Shown here piece by piece: positions 2,817 to 34,529 of a DNA stretch of 36,010 nt; within the stretch, counting starts at the first letter, position 1; each line of letters begins with the position of its first letter. This DNA is from a virus, in the UHGV virus genome UHGV-0022223; one strand, written 5' to 3'. The position numbers and the translations under genes are program-made. The notes beneath the pieces are model-generated. The model worked only from the letters and a program-made list of their open reading frames with translations, was not told the origin of the DNA and did no database searches.

Positions 2817-2981
2817 TTAGGCTTCGTGGGCCATCTGGTCGTACGAAGCGCAACGCACAGAACAGTAATCACGTTGTTCGCGCGCCAGCTGGGCGCCGCT
2901 GATGAAGAGCAGTACGTTTTTAACTTCTTTCCCTGACTCGATAGGTTTGCGGCAGTACGCGCATTTCTTTGAGTTACACAT
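2817..2981 (-). CDS. Small zinc-ribbon protein (CxxC...C..C), YdaE-like
   Basis: Track ORF 2817..3026; internal ATG at 2981 has RBS AAGGGGA and overlaps the upstream stop (ATGTGTAA). Four Cys in about 54 aa; position between kil-like ORF and recE matches Rac ydaE. Confidence 0.45.
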   Translation of the reverse strand: MCNSKKCAYCRKPIESGKEVKNVLLFISGAQLAREQRDYCSVRCASYDQMAHEA

Positions 2982-3090
2982 CAGGATTCCCCTTCTGTGC
3001 CAGCAGATAACAGAGGCGGCGAACAAACACTTCTGCCCAGTTCAGTTTTACGGCCTGCTGCCGGGTTGGTCTTCTGGCAAAATCAATCAT
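2974..3090 (-). CDS. Small early protein (possible Kil-like), hypothetical
   Basis: Track ORF 2974..3156 begins at GTG without RBS; internal ATG at 3090 (MIDFARRP...) has a strong RBS AAGGAGA. Confidence 0.35.
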   Translation of the reverse strand: MIDFARRPTRQQAVKLNWAEVFVRRLCYLLAQKGNPDV

Positions 3091-3176
3091 ATTGATCTCC
3101 TTGTTATGCCTGTCTTTTATCCACTTCAGGCTCGGTGGTATGCTGGTAGTTCTCACACAGCCAGCAAGGAATAACT

Positions 3177-3470
3177 ATGAAATCAGTAACTAAGCCATGT
3201 CCTATTTGTGGTGAAGGCGCTTTGTCTTTTAACCAGACAAATCAGTTGGTTAACATCAAAGTAAATCCACCAACTATTCGTGAAGTTCCATCAGTGGTTT
3301 ATGTTTGCGATACACACGGATGGTTTTCACTTTCAGAACAGATAAACAGCCTCGTTACATCAACAGACGACCCTGTGGCTAAACAAAAATTGGCAGTTAT
3401 CGTCAAAGAGCGATATGTGCCGGAACATGATCAGCCGTTAGCTCTGAAACCTATTGAGTCGCTCGCATAA
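3177..3470 (+). CDS. Hypothetical zinc-ribbon protein (CPICG...C..H), AT-rich, opposite orientation inside leftward early operon
   Basis: 97-aa ORF with RBS AAGGA; visibly lower GC than flanks; converges on and overlaps the 3451..3720 gene by 20 bp. Confidence 0.5.
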   Translation: MKSVTKPCPICGEGALSFNQTNQLVNIKVNPPTIREVPSVVYVCDTHGWFSLSEQINSLVTSTDDPVAKQKLAVIVKERYVPEHDQPLALKPIESLA

Positions 3471-3720
3471 GGTCTTTTCGGCTCTCACTGCGATATCCCA
3501 GGCGGTACATTTTCACGTAGGCTTTGCCACGAGGAATGCCGCCTGTTTTGTTGAATCTCTGCTGGGCGCGACGATGGTGTTTTGCTTCAGGGCTGTTTGA
3601 TCCTTTCCCGCCATCCGACCGCGAACTCGGGAGTTGCATTGGCTTTTGGCGTGAATCGAATTTACGTGCCCAGCACGCTCCAAAGCCGATCATTCCTGTT
3701 TTCTTCGTATTACCTTTCAT
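3451..3720 (-). CDS. Small basic protein, first gene downstream of PL-like promoter (function unknown; possible N-like regulator)
   Basis: Track ORF 3451..3765 starts at TTG; internal ATG at 3720 has RBS AAGGAG 7 nt upstream. K/R-rich 89-aa product. Confidence 0.5.
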   Translation of the reverse strand: MKGNTKKTGMIGFGACWARKFDSRQKPMQLPSSRSDGGKGSNSPEAKHHRRAQQRFNKTGGIPRGKAYVKMYRLGYRSESRKDLMRATQ

Positions 3721-3869
3721 CTCAATCTCCTTTGCCCTTGTCGCCAGGCTGGCGGAACGTTTCAAACCTACTGCGCGTTAATCTCACCACCTCATTCCGG
3801 TCTTCGTATGCCCCGGACGGCTACTTCGTGGGCTCCATGCCTGGGTGGTTCGTGGTGCGTCTTGGTGAT

Positions 3870-3945
3870 TGCATATTAAGCCTGAGACTTAAATCATGTC
3901 AAGCTCCAGGCGAAATGTGATTGTAAGTTTCAGGCTTAATCGTGA
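3870..3945 (-). promoter_or_regulatory. OL/PL-like region: leftward promoter with repressor operator sites
   Basis: Minus strand reads TTGACA (plus 3897-3902), 18-bp spacer, TAATAT; operator-like 17-mers TTAAGCCTGAGACTTAA (3876-3892) and TAAGTTTCAGGCTTAAT (3924-3940) match those beside the repressor gene. Confidence 0.55.
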
Positions 3946-3998: not shown

Positions 3999-4043
3999 AC
4001 TTCGTGGCTGGGTGTTGGCGGCTGAGATGGTGGGTGAGGGTGT

Positions 4044-4073
4044 AAAAAACCCGGCGCTGTGGCCGGGTTTTTT
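4044..4073. terminator. Bidirectional rho-independent terminator ending the moron operon
   Basis: A6, then CCCGGC-gctgtg-GCCGGG, then T6; sits just after the stop of the 34-aa ORF on the minus strand. Confidence 0.7.
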
Positions 4074-4075
4074 CA

Positions 4076-4180
4076 TTACTGCTGGTTAAATCCTTTCGGC
4101 GAGTGCTGCTGTTCTTTATTACCAAATTTTTGATTTACAATGATTTTATAAGCGTTATTGAGAGCTTGCTTTATAGACAT
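4076..4180 (-). CDS. Small 34-aa basic peptide (MSIKQALNNAYKIIVNQKFGNKEQQHSPKGFNQQ), coupled to upstream 434-aa gene
   Basis: ATG at 4180 with RBS AAGGAG 6 nt upstream, 17 nt after the 434-aa gene stop; stop followed directly by the terminator. Below the track length cutoff. Confidence 0.45.
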   Translation of the reverse strand: MSIKQALNNAYKIIVNQKFGNKEQQHSPKGFNQQ

Positions 4181-4197
4181 TAATATCTCCTTATGTG

Positions 4198-5502
4198 TTA
4201 TTGACGATTAAAGTAGTTAGAGTTTAGCTCTTTAGGGAAGTAGTGTTTACGATTTACCCAAACAAATCCATCAACTTTTGATATCACAGCGACATCAACA
4301 GGCCCACCGACAGTTTCATAATCATGTGATACTTTTCTTTTGAATGCAGTGATGTTCACTAATGATTCGGCCATATACGCAAGATCTGCCTTCCCAAGTG
4401 ATTGCAACATCGATATCATTTTATTTGTATGGTTATTAACAATATAGCTTTCAAGTTTAGTATCGTGATCTTGTAAAAGTACGTTTTTGAGTTCCTCAAT
4501 TTCACTGGAGAAGTGATTGGCTAGTACTCCATTGTTCATTGCAGGGAAAATATTGCTAGAAACATAATGATTAAGCCGATCAAAAACTTCCTCTGTAAGA
4601 GTTCTGTTAAAATTAATGATGTTAGGGTTGCACCCATCAATGAAAGTTACTACTTCATCTTCTTGAGCAAATGGTATAACAAACCCCATATTGGTTACCT
4701 CATTATGGGATTTCTCATCAATATTATGGATCATCAATTTGTTTTTAAAAATGCCGTAGATATGAAGAGTGCAAATGGAAGGGTAATATTCTTCCTCTCC
4801 ATAACCTGTTATAACAATCCCTGAATATGTACGACTAGCATGGACTTTGAAAATTAAACAAGTGGAATATAATATGACTTTTTCCATAAGCTCTTGCTGT
4901 ATATTTTCACAGTTATCAAGAACAATAATTGATGAAATGTATGGCGATATTAAATCTTGTATATATGCTAAAGCATCATTAAACTCTTCTGTATCAAACC
5001 CTTCGAAAAAGAGATTATTCCTTAAGATTCCTATCTCTAAATCAAAGGCTTGCTTAACTATGTTTTGAAAAATAACATTGTCGAGTTCAACGGCGGGGTT
5101 CATTGTTAAATAGTTTACTACATTATTATCATTAATGTATCTCATCAAACCTTTGAGGTTATCAACAACAAGGTTTATAACGCAAGCCTCTCTCATTTCA
5201 TTTGTTATAAGGTCTGAGTTACCATTGATGAATTTTACAAAGTCATTAACATATTCTTTAATGGTAGGGAAACTAGTTTTCCCCAATTGTTTTCTATAGG
5301 ATTTAATTATAAGTTCCCACGGTGCGCCACCCAGTGTCGCATTATTATAAATCATGATCCCCACGGGATGGTGTTTAGATAGTTCGAATAGTTTTTCCGC
5401 ACTATTATTTATTTTTACTAATCTATTATGCTCTGTGGTGACTGCAGAGTCAGCAGCAAGGGCGATTCCAGTATTATTTATTACAACAATCTCAGCTGTC
5501 AT
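4198..5502 (-). CDS. 434-aa protein with proteasome-beta/HslV-like Ntn-hydrolase sequence blocks and a large internal insertion; AT-rich moron
   Basis: Long ORF in strongly AT-rich DNA. Starts MTAEIVVINNTGIALAADSAVT...KLF (Thr after Met, Asp about 16 residues later, Lys before LF), has a TGYGEEE block, and ends GGPVDVAVISKVDGFV, which closely resembles the proteasome beta C-terminal strand recalled from memory. Confidence 0.8.
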   Translation of the reverse strand: MTAEIVVINNTGIALAADSAVTTEHNRLVKINNSAEKLFELSKHHPVGIMIYNNATLGGAPWELIIKSYRKQLGKTSFPTIKEYVNDFVKFINGNSDLITNEMREACVINLVVDNLKGLMRYINDNNVVNYLTMNPAVELDNVIFQNIVKQAFDLEIGILRNNLFFEGFDTEEFNDALAYIQDLISPYISSIIVLDNCENIQQELMEKVILYSTCLIFKVHASRTYSGIVITGYGEEEYYPSICTLHIYGIFKNKLMIHNIDEKSHNEVTNMGFVIPFAQEDEVVTFIDGCNPNIINFNRTLTEEVFDRLNHYVSSNIFPAMNNGVLANHFSSEIEELKNVLLQDHDTKLESYIVNNHTNKMISMLQSLGKADLAYMAESLVNITAFKRKVSHDYETVGGPVDVAVISKVDGFVWVNRKHYFPKELNSNYFNRQ

Positions 5503-5641: not shown

Positions 5642-6028
5642 TCAGTCCCCCTGCGAGCGAATCCGCCCCTTCATGTACTTCTCATACAGCTCATCCAGTT
5701 CCTTAAGACGTATCGAAAAGATGCGGAGCATGTTCTGTTGCTCTTCTTCTGGCAGCTGGCGGTAGAGCTCAAGCAGGCGCTGTTCGTCCGGCTTAAGTCC
5801 GTCCTTCTCGCCGACATCCTCACCGAGTAACCAAGGCACAGACACGCCAGCTGCGTCAGCGACAGCGAGAGCTGATTTCTTGCTGATCACGCCTTTTTTA
5901 AACCAGCCGTTCACAGACTGCGGGGTTACCCCAGCAACCCTGGCCATATCGGATTTGGTCATACCGCGCCCGTTCAGCTCTGAAAGGCGTTCGACAAGTA
6001 TCGGATTAAGTACGGTTTTCTCTTTCAT
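5642..6028 (-). CDS. Prophage repressor, HTH XRE family, DicA/RacR-like (no S24 peptidase domain)
   Basis: 128 aa; N-terminal HTH (MTKSDMARVAGVTPQSVNGWF) and a C-terminal LLELYRQLPEEEQ segment resembling DicA from memory; divergent from a Cro-like gene with operators between them. Confidence 0.75.
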   Translation of the reverse strand: MKEKTVLNPILVERLSELNGRGMTKSDMARVAGVTPQSVNGWFKKGVISKKSALAVADAAGVSVPWLLGEDVGEKDGLKPDEQRLLELYRQLPEEEQQNMLRIFSIRLKELDELYEKYMKGRIRSQGD

Positions 6029-6132
6029 GGTTAGAAGAATAAGCCTTTTGCTTAAATTTGAAAATTCGCCTCAGGCTTGACAATAAATTAAGTCTCAGGC
6101 TTAATTTGATTGTATTCAAATCGGAGACAACG
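6029..6132. promoter_or_regulatory. OR-like region: divergent PR/PRM-type promoters with three operator sites
   Basis: Operator-like sites at 6040-6055 (TAAGCCTTTTGCTTAA), 6068-6080 (GCCTCAGGCTTGA) and 6088-6104 (TTAAGTCTCAGGCTTAA); TTGACA at 6077-6082 gives a rightward promoter. Confidence 0.6.
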
Positions 6133-9495: not shown

Positions 9496-9538
9496 TTGAT
9501 CATTTCCGCGCATAGGTATACTGTATAAAAACACAGTA
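9496..9538 (+). promoter_or_regulatory. Promoter with overlapping LexA (SOS) box for the dinI-like gene
   Basis: TTGATC, about 15-bp spacer, TATACT; TACTGTATAAAAACACAGTA at 9519-9538 fits the LexA consensus CTGT-N8-ACAG. Confidence 0.75.
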
Positions 9539-9556
9539 AATGCAATGGGGGCCATT

Positions 9557-9790
9557 ATGAAAGTTGAATTAACCATTGATCGCATGAAAGAACTTCCTAA
9601 AGGCGCAGTACCAGCACTGGAGAAAGAACTGCTTAAGCGCCTGAATGATCACTATGACAATTGCAGGCTCACAATCCGCCGTGCCGGGGCCGATGGGTTA
9701 AGTGTTTTTGGTGGTGACAAGGACGATAAAAAGAAAATTGAATCAATCCTCCAGGATACCTGGGAAAGCGCTGACGACTGGTTTTATTAG
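9557..9790 (+). CDS. dinI: DinI-family DNA-damage-inducible protein
   Basis: MKVELTIDR... with C-terminal ILQDTWESADDWFY resembling E. coli DinI from memory; second ATG of the track ORF; LexA box upstream. Confidence 0.8.
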   Translation: MKVELTIDRMKELPKGAVPALEKELLKRLNDHYDNCRLTIRRAGADGLSVFGGDKDDKKKIESILQDTWESADDWFY

Positions 9791-9907
9791 AATTGCGCTT
9801 AAGGCTGGCGCGCATTTTTCAGAATACCGCAATTTGCGTAACCCTCTGATGCTGCTGCCGACAATCTTTAATCGCGTCTGTTAGTCGCTCGAAGGGAGAA
9901 CATAAAT

Positions 9908-10156
9908 GTGAGTGATTCAGCTTTGCAAACGTCAGAAGACAACTGGTATGACATTGTAAGAAGGTCTGACGGCTGCGTGGTGTTTAGCTTTCCTTCATCG
10001 GGCAGGCATCTAATTTATCGCGTCAATGGCATGGTTTCTATGCGGCCTTTGCTGGATGATGAAGAGGTCTTTACTCCTAATGGTTTTATGCAGTTTATTC
10101 ACCGTCTCGGCTACCGGGTAACCCCACCTTCTGATAATATGAAATCAACGGTCTGA
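9908..10156 (+). CDS. Hypothetical protein (GTG start)
   Basis: 82-aa ORF with RBS AAGGGAGA before the GTG. Confidence 0.45.
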   Translation: MSDSALQTSEDNWYDIVRRSDGCVVFSFPSSGRHLIYRVNGMVSMRPLLDDEEVFTPNGFMQFIHRLGYRVTPPSDNMKSTV

Positions 10157-29129: not shown

Positions 29130-29755
29130 TGGATATTTTATCAGCGATTTTTCGCCAGCAATCCCGGCGAATTGGCATATTAATTCCCAGCGTGGTCGTC
29201 TCCGAAAAGCATTCTGATGCGCTCGAAATTACTGAGCACCCGGTGGAGAAGCCAACAACGAATAGTGCCTCGGGTTTCATCGCCGATCATGCGTACAAGC
29301 GCCCCAGTGAAGTCACAATGGAATGCGGCTTCGCTGGTGGCGGTTCGTTGCTGGATTTCATTGATACATCTTCAATCGGTCTTAGCGCTGGGCTTTGCCC
29401 AAAGGAGACATACCAAAAGCTGCTGGATATGCAGCTTGAGCGCGTGCCATTCGATGTGGTGACCGGAAAGAGGGTGTACAGCAATATGCTGGTGCGAGCC
29501 ATCGAGGTGACAACGGATAAAACCAGCGAGAACGTGCTGAACTGCACGCTTACCCTGCGTGAAGTGATCATGTCGCAAACGCAGAGCGTTAGCGTTGCAG
29601 ATAAATCAGATATGCAGGATGGCGTCAGCACATCGGCGGTGCAGAATTCCGGGACTAAATCCACCACCCCAGTAAATGAATCGGTAATTAAGTCAACAGG
29701 GTGGTTTGATGGACTAAAAGGAACCAGTCTTGGTAACTCTATAGGTATCCAATGA
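29129..29755 (+). CDS. Tail / baseplate assembly protein
   Basis: 208-aa ORF with ATGA overlap to the tape measure. Confidence 0.4.
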   Translation: MDILSAIFRQQSRRIGILIPSVVVSEKHSDALEITEHPVEKPTTNSASGFIADHAYKRPSEVTMECGFAGGGSLLDFIDTSSIGLSAGLCPKETYQKLLDMQLERVPFDVVTGKRVYSNMLVRAIEVTTDKTSENVLNCTLTLREVIMSQTQSVSVADKSDMQDGVSTSAVQNSGTKSTTPVNESVIKSTGWFDGLKGTSLGNSIGIQ

Positions 29756-33329: not shown

Positions 33330-34529
33330 ATGGCTTTGAACCTCGACACGCTGGGGCTATCGGCAACGGTAACCGCCCAGGGGATTAGTGCGCCTGATTA
33401 CCAGACAATCCTAGATACACTGACCAGCTATTTCAGGCAGATTTACGGTAGTGATGCCTACCTCGAACCAGACAGCAAAGACGGGCAGATGGTCGCGCTG
33501 GTGGCTCTTGCCGTGCATGACGCTAACAACACCGCTATCGGGATCTACAACTCTTTTTCACCGACGACAGCGCAGGCCGCAGCGCTTAGCAGCAATGTGA
33601 AAATTAACGGGATCACGCGAAAAGTAGCGACAAACTCTACTGCTGACCTTCTGTTAACCGGTACGGCAGGCACGACTATCACGAATGGCTCCGCACGGGA
33701 TAAAAACGGCATTATCTGGAATTTTCCCGCAAGTGTAGCGATCGGCGTTGATGGTACTGTGCTGGTGACGGCCACATGTGCGAATAGCGGTTCGGTTGCT
33801 GCGATGGCCGGGACTATTACCACCATTAACACACCGACTCGCGGCTGGGTGTCGGTAACCAACCCAGCTTCGGCTACTGTCGGTTCACCAGCCGAAACCG
33901 ACGCAGAGCTGCGCATTCGGCAGGGGCAAAGCGTCGCGCTACCATCGATCACACCGTTTGAAGGTGTCGACGGTGCAATAGCTAACGTTGCTGGCGTGAC
34001 ACGTCACAAGTTGTATGAGAACGACACAGGAACAACAGACAGCAACGGGCTGCCGCCGCACTCAATTTCCGCCATCGTCGATGGTGGGGATGTTACCGAA
34101 ATAGCCCAGACCATCAGGGGGAATAAAGGACAGGGAACGGCAACCTACGGGACAACTTCTGTCACGGTGCCGGATACTTACGGTAATCCTCACGTCATCA
34201 GTTTTTCACGCTCTACCGATGTGCCAATTTTCGTAGCCATTACCCTGAAAGTTTTTACCGGGTATACCTCTCAAATCGGCGAGCAGATCAAACAGGCTGT
34301 TGCCGGCTATATTAATGGCCTGACAATTGGCGACGACGTTCTGCTGAGCCGTATTTATTCCCCGGCAAATCTTGGCGTTGTGAGCGGCGGTAATGCCCGA
34401 TATTACGACATTACCGAACTGCTGATCGGTAAGTCGTCTGGCAGCGTATCGGCATCAAACATTGATATTGCCTATGATGCTTCAGCGTCCTGTAGCACCG
34501 CGAATATCAGTATCACGGTGACCTCATGA
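33330..34529 (+). CDS. Baseplate J-like protein
   Basis: 399-aa ORF abutting gpW-like and overlapping the I-like gene. Confidence 0.6.
   Translation: MALNLDTLGLSATVTAQGISAPDYQTILDTLTSYFRQIYGSDAYLEPDSKDGQMVALVALAVHDANNTAIGIYNSFSPTTAQAAALSSNVKINGITRKVATNSTADLLLTGTAGTTITNGSARDKNGIIWNFPASVAIGVDGTVLVTATCANSGSVAAMAGTITTINTPTRGWVSVTNPASATVGSPAETDAELRIRQGQSVALPSITPFEGVDGAIANVAGVTRHKLYENDTGTTDSNGLPPHSISAIVDGGDVTEIAQTIRGNKGQGTATYGTTSVTVPDTYGNPHVISFSRSTDVPIFVAITLKVFTGYTSQIGEQIKQAVAGYINGLTIGDDVLLSRIYSPANLGVVSGGNARYYDITELLIGKSSGSVSASNIDIAYDASASCSTANISITVTS

Follow-up and report, generated by a model that had tools for sequence, protein, structure and literature searches.

What does a small plus-strand gene do in the middle of an early-left operon that otherwise runs on the minus strand? 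The question is raised by UHGV virus genome UHGV-0022223, a lambdoid prophage of the Rac/Gifsy/e14 kind that we analyzed over a stretch of 36,010 nucleotides (nt), called the window below: here an open reading frame (ORF) of 97 codons, ORF97, faces P1, the gene next to the early-left promoter pL, tail-to-tail (Table 1). A first-pass annotation had described it as an AT-rich CxxC-containing frame and offered two explanations, namely that it is a moron or that it is an antisense and convergent-transcription control element. On balance, we favor a reading that draws on both: ORF97 would be an accessory prophage gene in a hypervariable slot of the sieB type, in which it and P1 are convergent and would interfere with each other, possibly as antagonists. 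The parts of this reading differ in strength: that ORF97 is an independently expressed accessory gene is very probable; that ORF97 and P1 are functional antagonists falls a little short of an even chance; and a role in exclusion or defense is a tentative suggestion.

The features noted at first pass are present: the frame lies on the plus strand inside a minus-strand operon, with an ATG, a ribosome-binding site and the cysteines C8 and C11. The AT-richness is likewise correct, if moderate: the GC content is 41.5% (33.7% at third codon positions) as compared to 52.1% in the window and 51.5% (51% at third positions) in P1, and, as expected of a moron, the composition differs from that of the neighboring genes. 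By itself the length of the ORF is within chance expectation, and it is the conservation that establishes the gene as real. Conservation in related prophages, which had been proposed as a check, is seen in 22 homologue clusters of 57-100% identity, almost all of 97 amino acids (aa), from Escherichia, Klebsiella, Raoultella, Kosakonia, Atlantibacter, Phytobacter and related Enterobacteriaceae; a few entries of 109 aa start upstream, within what is the leader in the window. The ratio of nonsynonymous to synonymous substitution rates (dN/dS), computed pairwise against the window copy, is 0.04-0.29, with synonymous sites being saturated in the divergent copies. Thus, ORF97 is a genuine protein-coding gene under purifying selection.

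The protein shows two knuckles, C8-P-I-C11 and C44-D-T-H47, whose four residues are invariant across the 22 clusters, as are G48-W49-F50 and the C-terminal I-E-S-L. An AlphaFold2 model (predicted local distance difference test, pLDDT, 91.6; predicted template modeling score 0.81) has a long β-hairpin (strands 14-26 and 33-44) between the knuckles, followed by a further strand and two helices, i.e. the modeled fold is that of the zinc-ribbon class, in which two knuckles flank a β-hairpin, with putative Cys3-His ligands. The isoelectric point (pI) is 6.05 and the grand average of hydropathy -0.11. ORF97 is annotated as hypothetical in RefSeq and gives a full-length match (E 1.8e-57) to phrog_31519, a family of unknown function; a profile search of the PDB returned nothing credible. 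Profile-based screening of 1.8 billion protein representatives recovered no more than four true clusters (50% identity), none with a fused domain, and judged by these homologues the family is a small one.

A possible identity for such a protein is that of a Lar/RalR-like zinc ribbon, acting in restriction alleviation or as a small DNase toxin, as these too are small phage-borne zinc ribbons with an N-terminal (K)PCPxCG knuckle. Weak matches to Lar_restr_allev (PF14354) were obtained with 12 of the 22 family members (best E 8.8e-4), along with a TIGR03655 match at E 0.046 and fold matches in BFVD that include a 'restriction alleviation protein' (probability at most 0.51); moreover, the unrelated restriction-alleviation gene ral adjoins the slot in lambda. 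However, the matches remain below the curated cut-offs (15.6 vs 28.6 bits) and do not extend beyond the first knuckle (residues 5-23), the second knuckle of ORF97 is CxxH/D rather than CxxC, its C-terminal half is without a Lar counterpart, and Lar/RalR genes occupy a different genomic position. We consider this identity improbable. An MqsA-type zinc-ribbon antitoxin, considered on account of the CPxCG...CxxC spacing, was dropped, as there was no Pfam match at E up to 1 and no fold match in the PDB.

ORF97 and P1 show a characteristic architectural constancy. In searches seeded with ORF97, P1 is the convergent neighbor in each of the 17 loci fetched, and in those seeded with P1 an ORF97 relative is present in 25 of 25 IMG/VR loci; in the loci examined P1 was never seen with another cargo. 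The 3' overlap of 20 base pairs (bp) reported at first pass is borne out, with the minus-strand frame ending at 3451 and ORF97 at 3470, and after removal of duplicates it is exactly of this length in all 25 distinct modules, including those of a 95-aa subfamily whose ORF97 copies are 35-39% identical and have His47 replaced by Asp (family length 95-97 codons). The remote ORF97 relatives P0059 and P0061 also face a gene beginning MKGNTK..., with overlaps of 56 and 6 bp; since the IESL tail is kept even with an overlap of 6 bp, it is constrained at the protein level. Repressors and flanking genes vary among the ORF97/P1 loci, and the pairwise identities of the two proteins correlate (Mantel r 0.68, p about 2e-4). 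Inspection of P1 by eye revealed no residues that clearly follow the split between the two ORF97 subfamilies. In one relative (L042, IMGVR_UViG_3300011722_000026) the ORF97 and P1 relatives each match in two BLAST pieces, which suggests either frameshifts in both genes or sequencing errors.

P1 itself matches phrog_29236, has 36 clusters at 63-97% identity and a dN/dS of 0.04-0.21, and is highly basic (pI 11.3); its AlphaFold2 model is of low confidence and mostly unstructured (pLDDT 61.6), and no Pfam, NCBIfam or PADLOC match was found. The description of the overlapped gene as the first of the PL operon is right as to position: P1 is the first ORF to follow pL, which is under operator control, since the promoter with the shared operator precedes 3720..3451. 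We also considered P1 as an antiterminator of the lambda N type and rejected this, as there is no family match and no N-terminal arginine-rich motif, its only Arg-rich stretch being AKHHRRAQQR in the middle of the protein. The likeness to N lies in position, basic charge and disorder only. On reading, no boxA-like sequence was seen in the pL leader, and in phage mEp237 the same leader runs into kil with no such gene in between; for these reasons P1 is not called an N protein.

The geometry of the pair raises the alternative that the transcript rather than the protein is the product, i.e. an antisense RNA directed against P1 and pL, comparable to oop or P22 sas, with the ORF being incidental. 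The convergent overlap, the lack of a predicted plus-strand terminator nearby and the precedents of oop and of sas acting on sieB (PMC7067206, PMC12197685) would all fit such an RNA. Nevertheless, the range of dN/dS, the invariant metal ligands, the length of 95-97 codons, the conserved ribosome-binding site, the confidently predicted fold and the retention of the IESL tail at the 6-bp overlap betray a constraint at the protein level, which contradicts a function as RNA alone and leaves this alternative with little likelihood. Thus, of the antisense or convergent control envisaged by the first-pass annotation, the geometry stands (fixed 20-bp overlap, no predicted plus-strand terminator before approximately 4043-4072), while the notion of a mere antisense device does not, because ORF97 codes for a protein under purifying selection.

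Upstream of ORF97 lies a conserved element of 64 nt (3108-3171), GCCTGTCTTTTATCCACTTCAGGCTCGGTGGTATGCTGGTAGTTCTCACACAGCCAGCAAGGAA, which combines an inverted repeat, an extended -10 sequence, a short leader and the ribosome-binding site. It is 83-100% identical where the ORF97 DNA drops to 54-72%, and is hence better conserved than the ORF itself; in two loci (L029, L030) the GCCTG/CAGGC arms are kept, with CCAC/GTGG being replaced by AACCCG/CGGGTT. On neither strand does its RNA fold better than shuffled sequences (z -1.2), and the shared repeat may bind a protein or act as a recombination linker. The conserved TGgTATGCT, which keeps a fixed distance to the start codon, is likely the promoter of ORF97, a candidate of the extended -10 kind with a weak -35.

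The same element precedes many genes other than ORF97. At least 120 IMG/VR contigs contain its core 25-mer, and in 116 of them an ORF 40-163 codons in length begins 30-34 nt further on; these ORFs fall into 17 unrelated small-gene families, none of known function. A minus-strand gene lies tail-to-tail with most of these cargos, and the two usually overlap by 4-72 bp. Of 5426 complete Escherichia coli genomes, 1707 have a match to some part of the element, and 438 to 80% or more of it. Among the cargos is a family (C5; 91-92 aa; CPLC...YTCPEHGKF) whose N-terminal zinc ribbon is homologous to residues 4-55 of ORF97 (hhalign probability 90%, E 1.4e-6), whereas its C-terminal half and its convergent partner differ; its own Pfam match is to the HMPTM zinc ribbon (PF23545; 24.4 bits, below the cut-off). 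Zinc-ribbon (CxxC) families found behind the cassette are C0, C5 and C15 (loci L047-L166, IMG/VR). The commonest cargo, C0 (76 aa, 28 loci), has no convergent partner of at least 45 aa in 26 of the 28. The YmfI family and another cargo, C11, have phrog_8894 in common, and C11 gives a weak, sub-threshold GhoS match (E 0.0018).

ORF97 is dispensable, being absent from otherwise similar phages, as is typical of morons: mEp237 has the same pL leader followed directly by kil, with neither P1 nor ORF97, and the module is present in 2 of the 91 E. coli genomes that match window 2900-3900. The moron proposal thus gains from the deviant composition and from the optional, hypervariable slot; as to its other elements, the promoter is a predicted one and no terminator directly follows the gene.

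A precedent for the arrangement is presented by sieB, which in lambda (+) abuts N (-) and in P22 (+) faces gene 24 (-). The left half of the 64-nt element, with the inverted repeat, also lies upstream of sieB (lambda 34397-34427, P22 29654-29683), so that these phages and the window have approximately 30 nt of upstream sequence, CCTGTCTTTTAACCACNTCAGGCTCGGTGG, in common. Judged by this sequence and by position, ORF97 occupies a slot equivalent to that of sieB: both genes are inverted in the early-left operon, lie downstream of the shared repeat, converge on the first pL gene and are optional among relatives, with phage L lacking sieB at the slot (PMC8022706). The P22 prophage expresses sieB, which the antisense RNA sas modulates (PMC7067206, PMC12197685). 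The lambda and P22 genes have a promoter of their own and are prophage-expressed, whereas for ORF97 both properties remain predicted. The products are distinct: SieB is a protein of 184-192 aa without sequence similarity to the 97-aa, predicted soluble zinc ribbon, and ORF97 has no Pfam, NCBIfam or PHROG match to SieB. Further, sieB and N do not overlap, unlike ORF97 and P1, and the P22 sieB promoter lies approximately 7-37 nt downstream of the shared repeat (29690-29720 in the P22 record, with an RNA start site at 29727), in contrast to the -10 candidate of ORF97, which abuts it. No counterpart of the internal Esc start or of the sas RNA came to light at ORF97, where no search aimed at either was made. 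As an observation in its own right, the repeat-to-promoter distance separates a P22/lambda type from an e14/Rac type, and the repeats span heteroimmune lambdoid phages.

Closer to the window in their upstream region are two pairs of prophage genes from the e14 and Rac elements. The K-12 pair ymfI/ymfJ of e14 has the same 64-nt element, 93.8% identical and at the same distance from the start codon, and rac10/rac11 of Rac-SA53 has the whole element; as in the window, both are convergent overlapping pairs next to the repressor gene. Their proteins are, however, unrelated to ORF97 and P1, and the overlaps are 63 and 39 bp rather than 20. ExcludonFinder lists ymfI-ymfJ and the sieB-ydaF pair of Rac as convergent excludons on the basis of RNA sequencing in E. 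coli K-12 (PMC12288877), and ymfJ is strongly, and ymfI weakly, induced late in the SOS response (PMC11002266).

Together, the conserved pairing, the geometry and the element suggest how the locus might operate; the promoter activity of ORF97, the antisense interplay and the protein-protein relationship are what we infer in this scheme. In the lysogen, with pL repressed, the predicted extended -10 at 3136-3144 would act constitutively to transcribe ORF97, and, as no terminator follows the gene, this transcript probably continues in antisense direction across P1, the P1 leader and pL, which would damp any leaky early-left expression. Upon induction, strong transcription from pL would in turn run antisense through ORF97 and switch it off, such that ORF97 and P1 would constitute a mutually exclusive convergent pair or 'excludon'. 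As the coding regions themselves overlap by 20 bp, any full-length mRNAs would be complementary, like the overlapping transcripts of an excludon, provided that both strands are transcribed. Since the two genes were never found apart, their products, the near-neutral zinc ribbon and the basic, disordered P1, are further proposed to act on each other, either as a prophage-expressed effector with an early-expressed antidote, or as an early toxic or regulatory protein with an inhibitor expressed in the lysogen.

A more general form of this proposal would make the slot a general hot spot of lambdoid prophages, marked by the 64-nt cassette, that holds interchangeable two-component antagonist modules: by analogy to the SieB/Esc logic of P22, a small effector expressed in the lysogen (ORF97) may be set against the product of the first early gene (P1), with either neutralizing the other. 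We offer this extension as a doubtful one.

Several observations weigh against the favored reading. The strict co-occurrence of ORF97 and P1 could reflect their mere physical overlap. In one locus (L025) P1 is 88% identical but ORF97 only 37%, a sign that their evolution has not always run in parallel. Elsewhere in the slot, partners of different cargo families have an N-terminal domain (HVIALLLED...) in common, and specificity between cargo and partner therefore does not hold throughout the slot. A Foldseek search with the ORF97 model found no neighbor below E 0.1 in the PDB and BFVD, and in the functional families of Pfam, NCBIfam, PHROG and PADLOC there was no defense, toxin-antitoxin or other match for either protein. 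As for the promoter, a consensus promoter scanner passed over the -10 candidate owing to its poor -35. In P22 and lambda, sieB has its mapped or annotated promoter downstream of the shared repeat and not at the 3' end of that repeat; consequently, the homology supports the slot but not the particular -10 of the window, where a promoter placed as in P22 cannot fit, since repeat and ATG are only 36 nt apart.

Part of this evidence would also fit an independent moron, i.e. an ORF97 that serves, for example, in exclusion, anti-restriction or host modulation without a functional tie to P1, the pairing then being linkage within an overlapping mosaic block. The 17 unrelated cargo families of the slot, the discordant locus and the partner domains common to several cargos elsewhere favor such an account, as does E. 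coli MSB1_9D, in which the mosaic block consists of exactly the element, ORF97 and P1 (window 3107-3765) between unrelated flanks. Yet the pairing persists below 40% identity and in the remote relatives with overlaps of 6 and 56 bp, and it has held though the region otherwise recombines freely, with P1 never accompanied by another cargo. We regard independence of the two genes as quite possible though less likely, and retain the convergent pair with P1 as our working interpretation.

A prophage gene that is inverted and convergent with the first pL gene is, as sieB exemplifies, an already known arrangement. The ORF97 protein family, its invariable, fixed-overlap pairing with P1 and the use of one cassette in front of many unrelated small genes appear to be new, and in the open-access literature we found no description of a single cassette that precedes unrelated small genes across lambdoid prophages. 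Prophage slots with their own promoter are where exclusion, defense and host-modulating functions tend to accumulate; the equivalence of the slots would tie the hitherto anonymous ORF97 to the classical sieB position, and the cassette, of which about one in three complete E. coli genomes has at least a part, stands in front of many unrelated, uncharacterized small genes, including ymfI of K-12. If ORF97 and P1 do interact, they would provide a compact, testable model of an accessory function that is on in lysogeny and turned off at induction through convergent transcription, and approximately 17 more families from the same slot would become candidates for interference between phages or between phage and host. 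Should the hot-spot extension be true as well, ORF97/P1, YmfI/YmfJ and around 15 other uncharacterized pairs would represent new systems of the exclusion/self-immunity or toxin/antidote kind with the wiring of excludons. If ORF97 and P1 do not interact, ORF97 would be one more hypothetical moron.

The repressor of the window invites one other explanation. It is a 128-aa protein of the DicA/Gifsy type from which the cleavage domain is absent, and repressors of the Gifsy type are inactivated by small antirepressors (PMC3121763), a part that ORF97 might be thought to play. Against this, ORF97 co-occurs with unrelated repressors, including one of the LexA family (in L001), and shows no covariation with the repressor; there is no LexA box within 1 kilobase of it; and the window holds a separate module with a LexA box and a DinI-like gene that resembles the published Gifsy arrangement. 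We accordingly rejected the antirepressor explanation as very improbable. In the separate module, a perfect LexA-box-like site, CTGTATAAAAACACAG, at 9521..9536 lies 9 nt before an 81-aa ORF (9545..9790, +), DinI-like by eye, which is followed by an 82-aa ORF (9908..10156, +). The whole (9521..10156) matches the published LexA-controlled dinI-antirepressor unit of Gifsy and fits the short repressor. A second perfect LexA-box-like site, CTGTATATTTTCACAG, is found at 4897..4912, inside a 434-aa gene considered below; matches to the LexA-box pattern number 19 in the window as against a maximum of 17 among 100 shuffles.

Table 1. Features of the ORF97 locus and its control region (positions in the window)
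Feature	Position	Strand	Description
Inverted repeat GCCTG-N14-CAGGC	3108..3131	+	Left part of the conserved 64-nt element; kept in nearly all ORF97 modules
Second repeat CCAC-N10-GTGG	3121-3138	+	Overlaps the first repeat
Predicted extended -10 TGgTATGCT	3136..3144	+	TATACT in many relatives; by inspection and conservation
Shine-Dalgarno sequence AAGGA	3166..3170	+	Six nt 5' of the ATG; kept in all modules
ORF97	3177..3470	+	97 aa, ATG start; predicted soluble C3H zinc-ribbon protein with two C-terminal helices; conserved IESL tail
Tail-to-tail overlap of ORF97 and P1	3451..3470	both strands coding	20 bp
P1	3451..3720	-	89 aa, MKGNTKK start, likely ATG at 3720; first gene downstream of pL
Conserved pL leader segment	3731..3854	-	Right-hand boundary of the ORF97+P1 cassette
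pL-like promoter TTGACA-18-TAATAT	3902-3873	-	From a promoter scan; operator palindrome in the spacer
18-bp palindromic operator	3875-3892		In the pL spacer; recurs at 6088-6105 between the hexamers of a pR-like promoter
Bidirectional intrinsic terminator	4043-4072	both	Predicted folding -24.4 kcal/mol (+) and -18.9 (-), T run after each
DicA-like repressor	5642..6028	-	128 aa, short

Leftward of ORF97, the minus strand throughout carries a RecE-like open frame of at least 938 codons that runs off the window, a YdaE-like gene and a gene of 38 codons. To the right of ORF97, P1, the 434-aa gene and the cI repressor gene likewise lie on the minus strand, and from the repressor the Cro/YdaS-like, YdaT-like, O and P genes run rightward. 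The operator palindrome, TTAAGTCTCAGGCTTAAT, is located in the spacers of both pL and pR, with partial extra copies nearby (3875..3892, 3930..3940, 6070..6105), and the operator copies define the immunity specificity of this prophage.

For the leader segment of pL (approximately 120 nt), mEp237 shows 96% identity, and many E. coli genomes without P1 or ORF97 show 99-100%; taken across mEp237 and approximately 90 E. coli genomes, this identity of 96-100% is maintained despite differing operators and downstream genes. The leader RNA is C-rich and, with a folding z of +1.26, unstructured, and it might be a Rho-loading site or another cis-acting leader element. An Rfam search of the window gave no match. 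No plus-strand terminator was predicted between 3177 and 4043, the bidirectional one being the first after ORF97.

The 434-aa gene (4198..5502, -; 34% GC) lies between the repressor gene and pL, the place of rexAB in lambda, and matches phrog_5990, which has no known function; no PADLOC match was found for it. After it come a 34-codon ORF (4076..4180, -) with a strong ribosome-binding site and then the bidirectional terminator. It is likely a prophage-expressed defense or moron gene. In one relative (L046), a gene with a BstA_C domain is found in its place.

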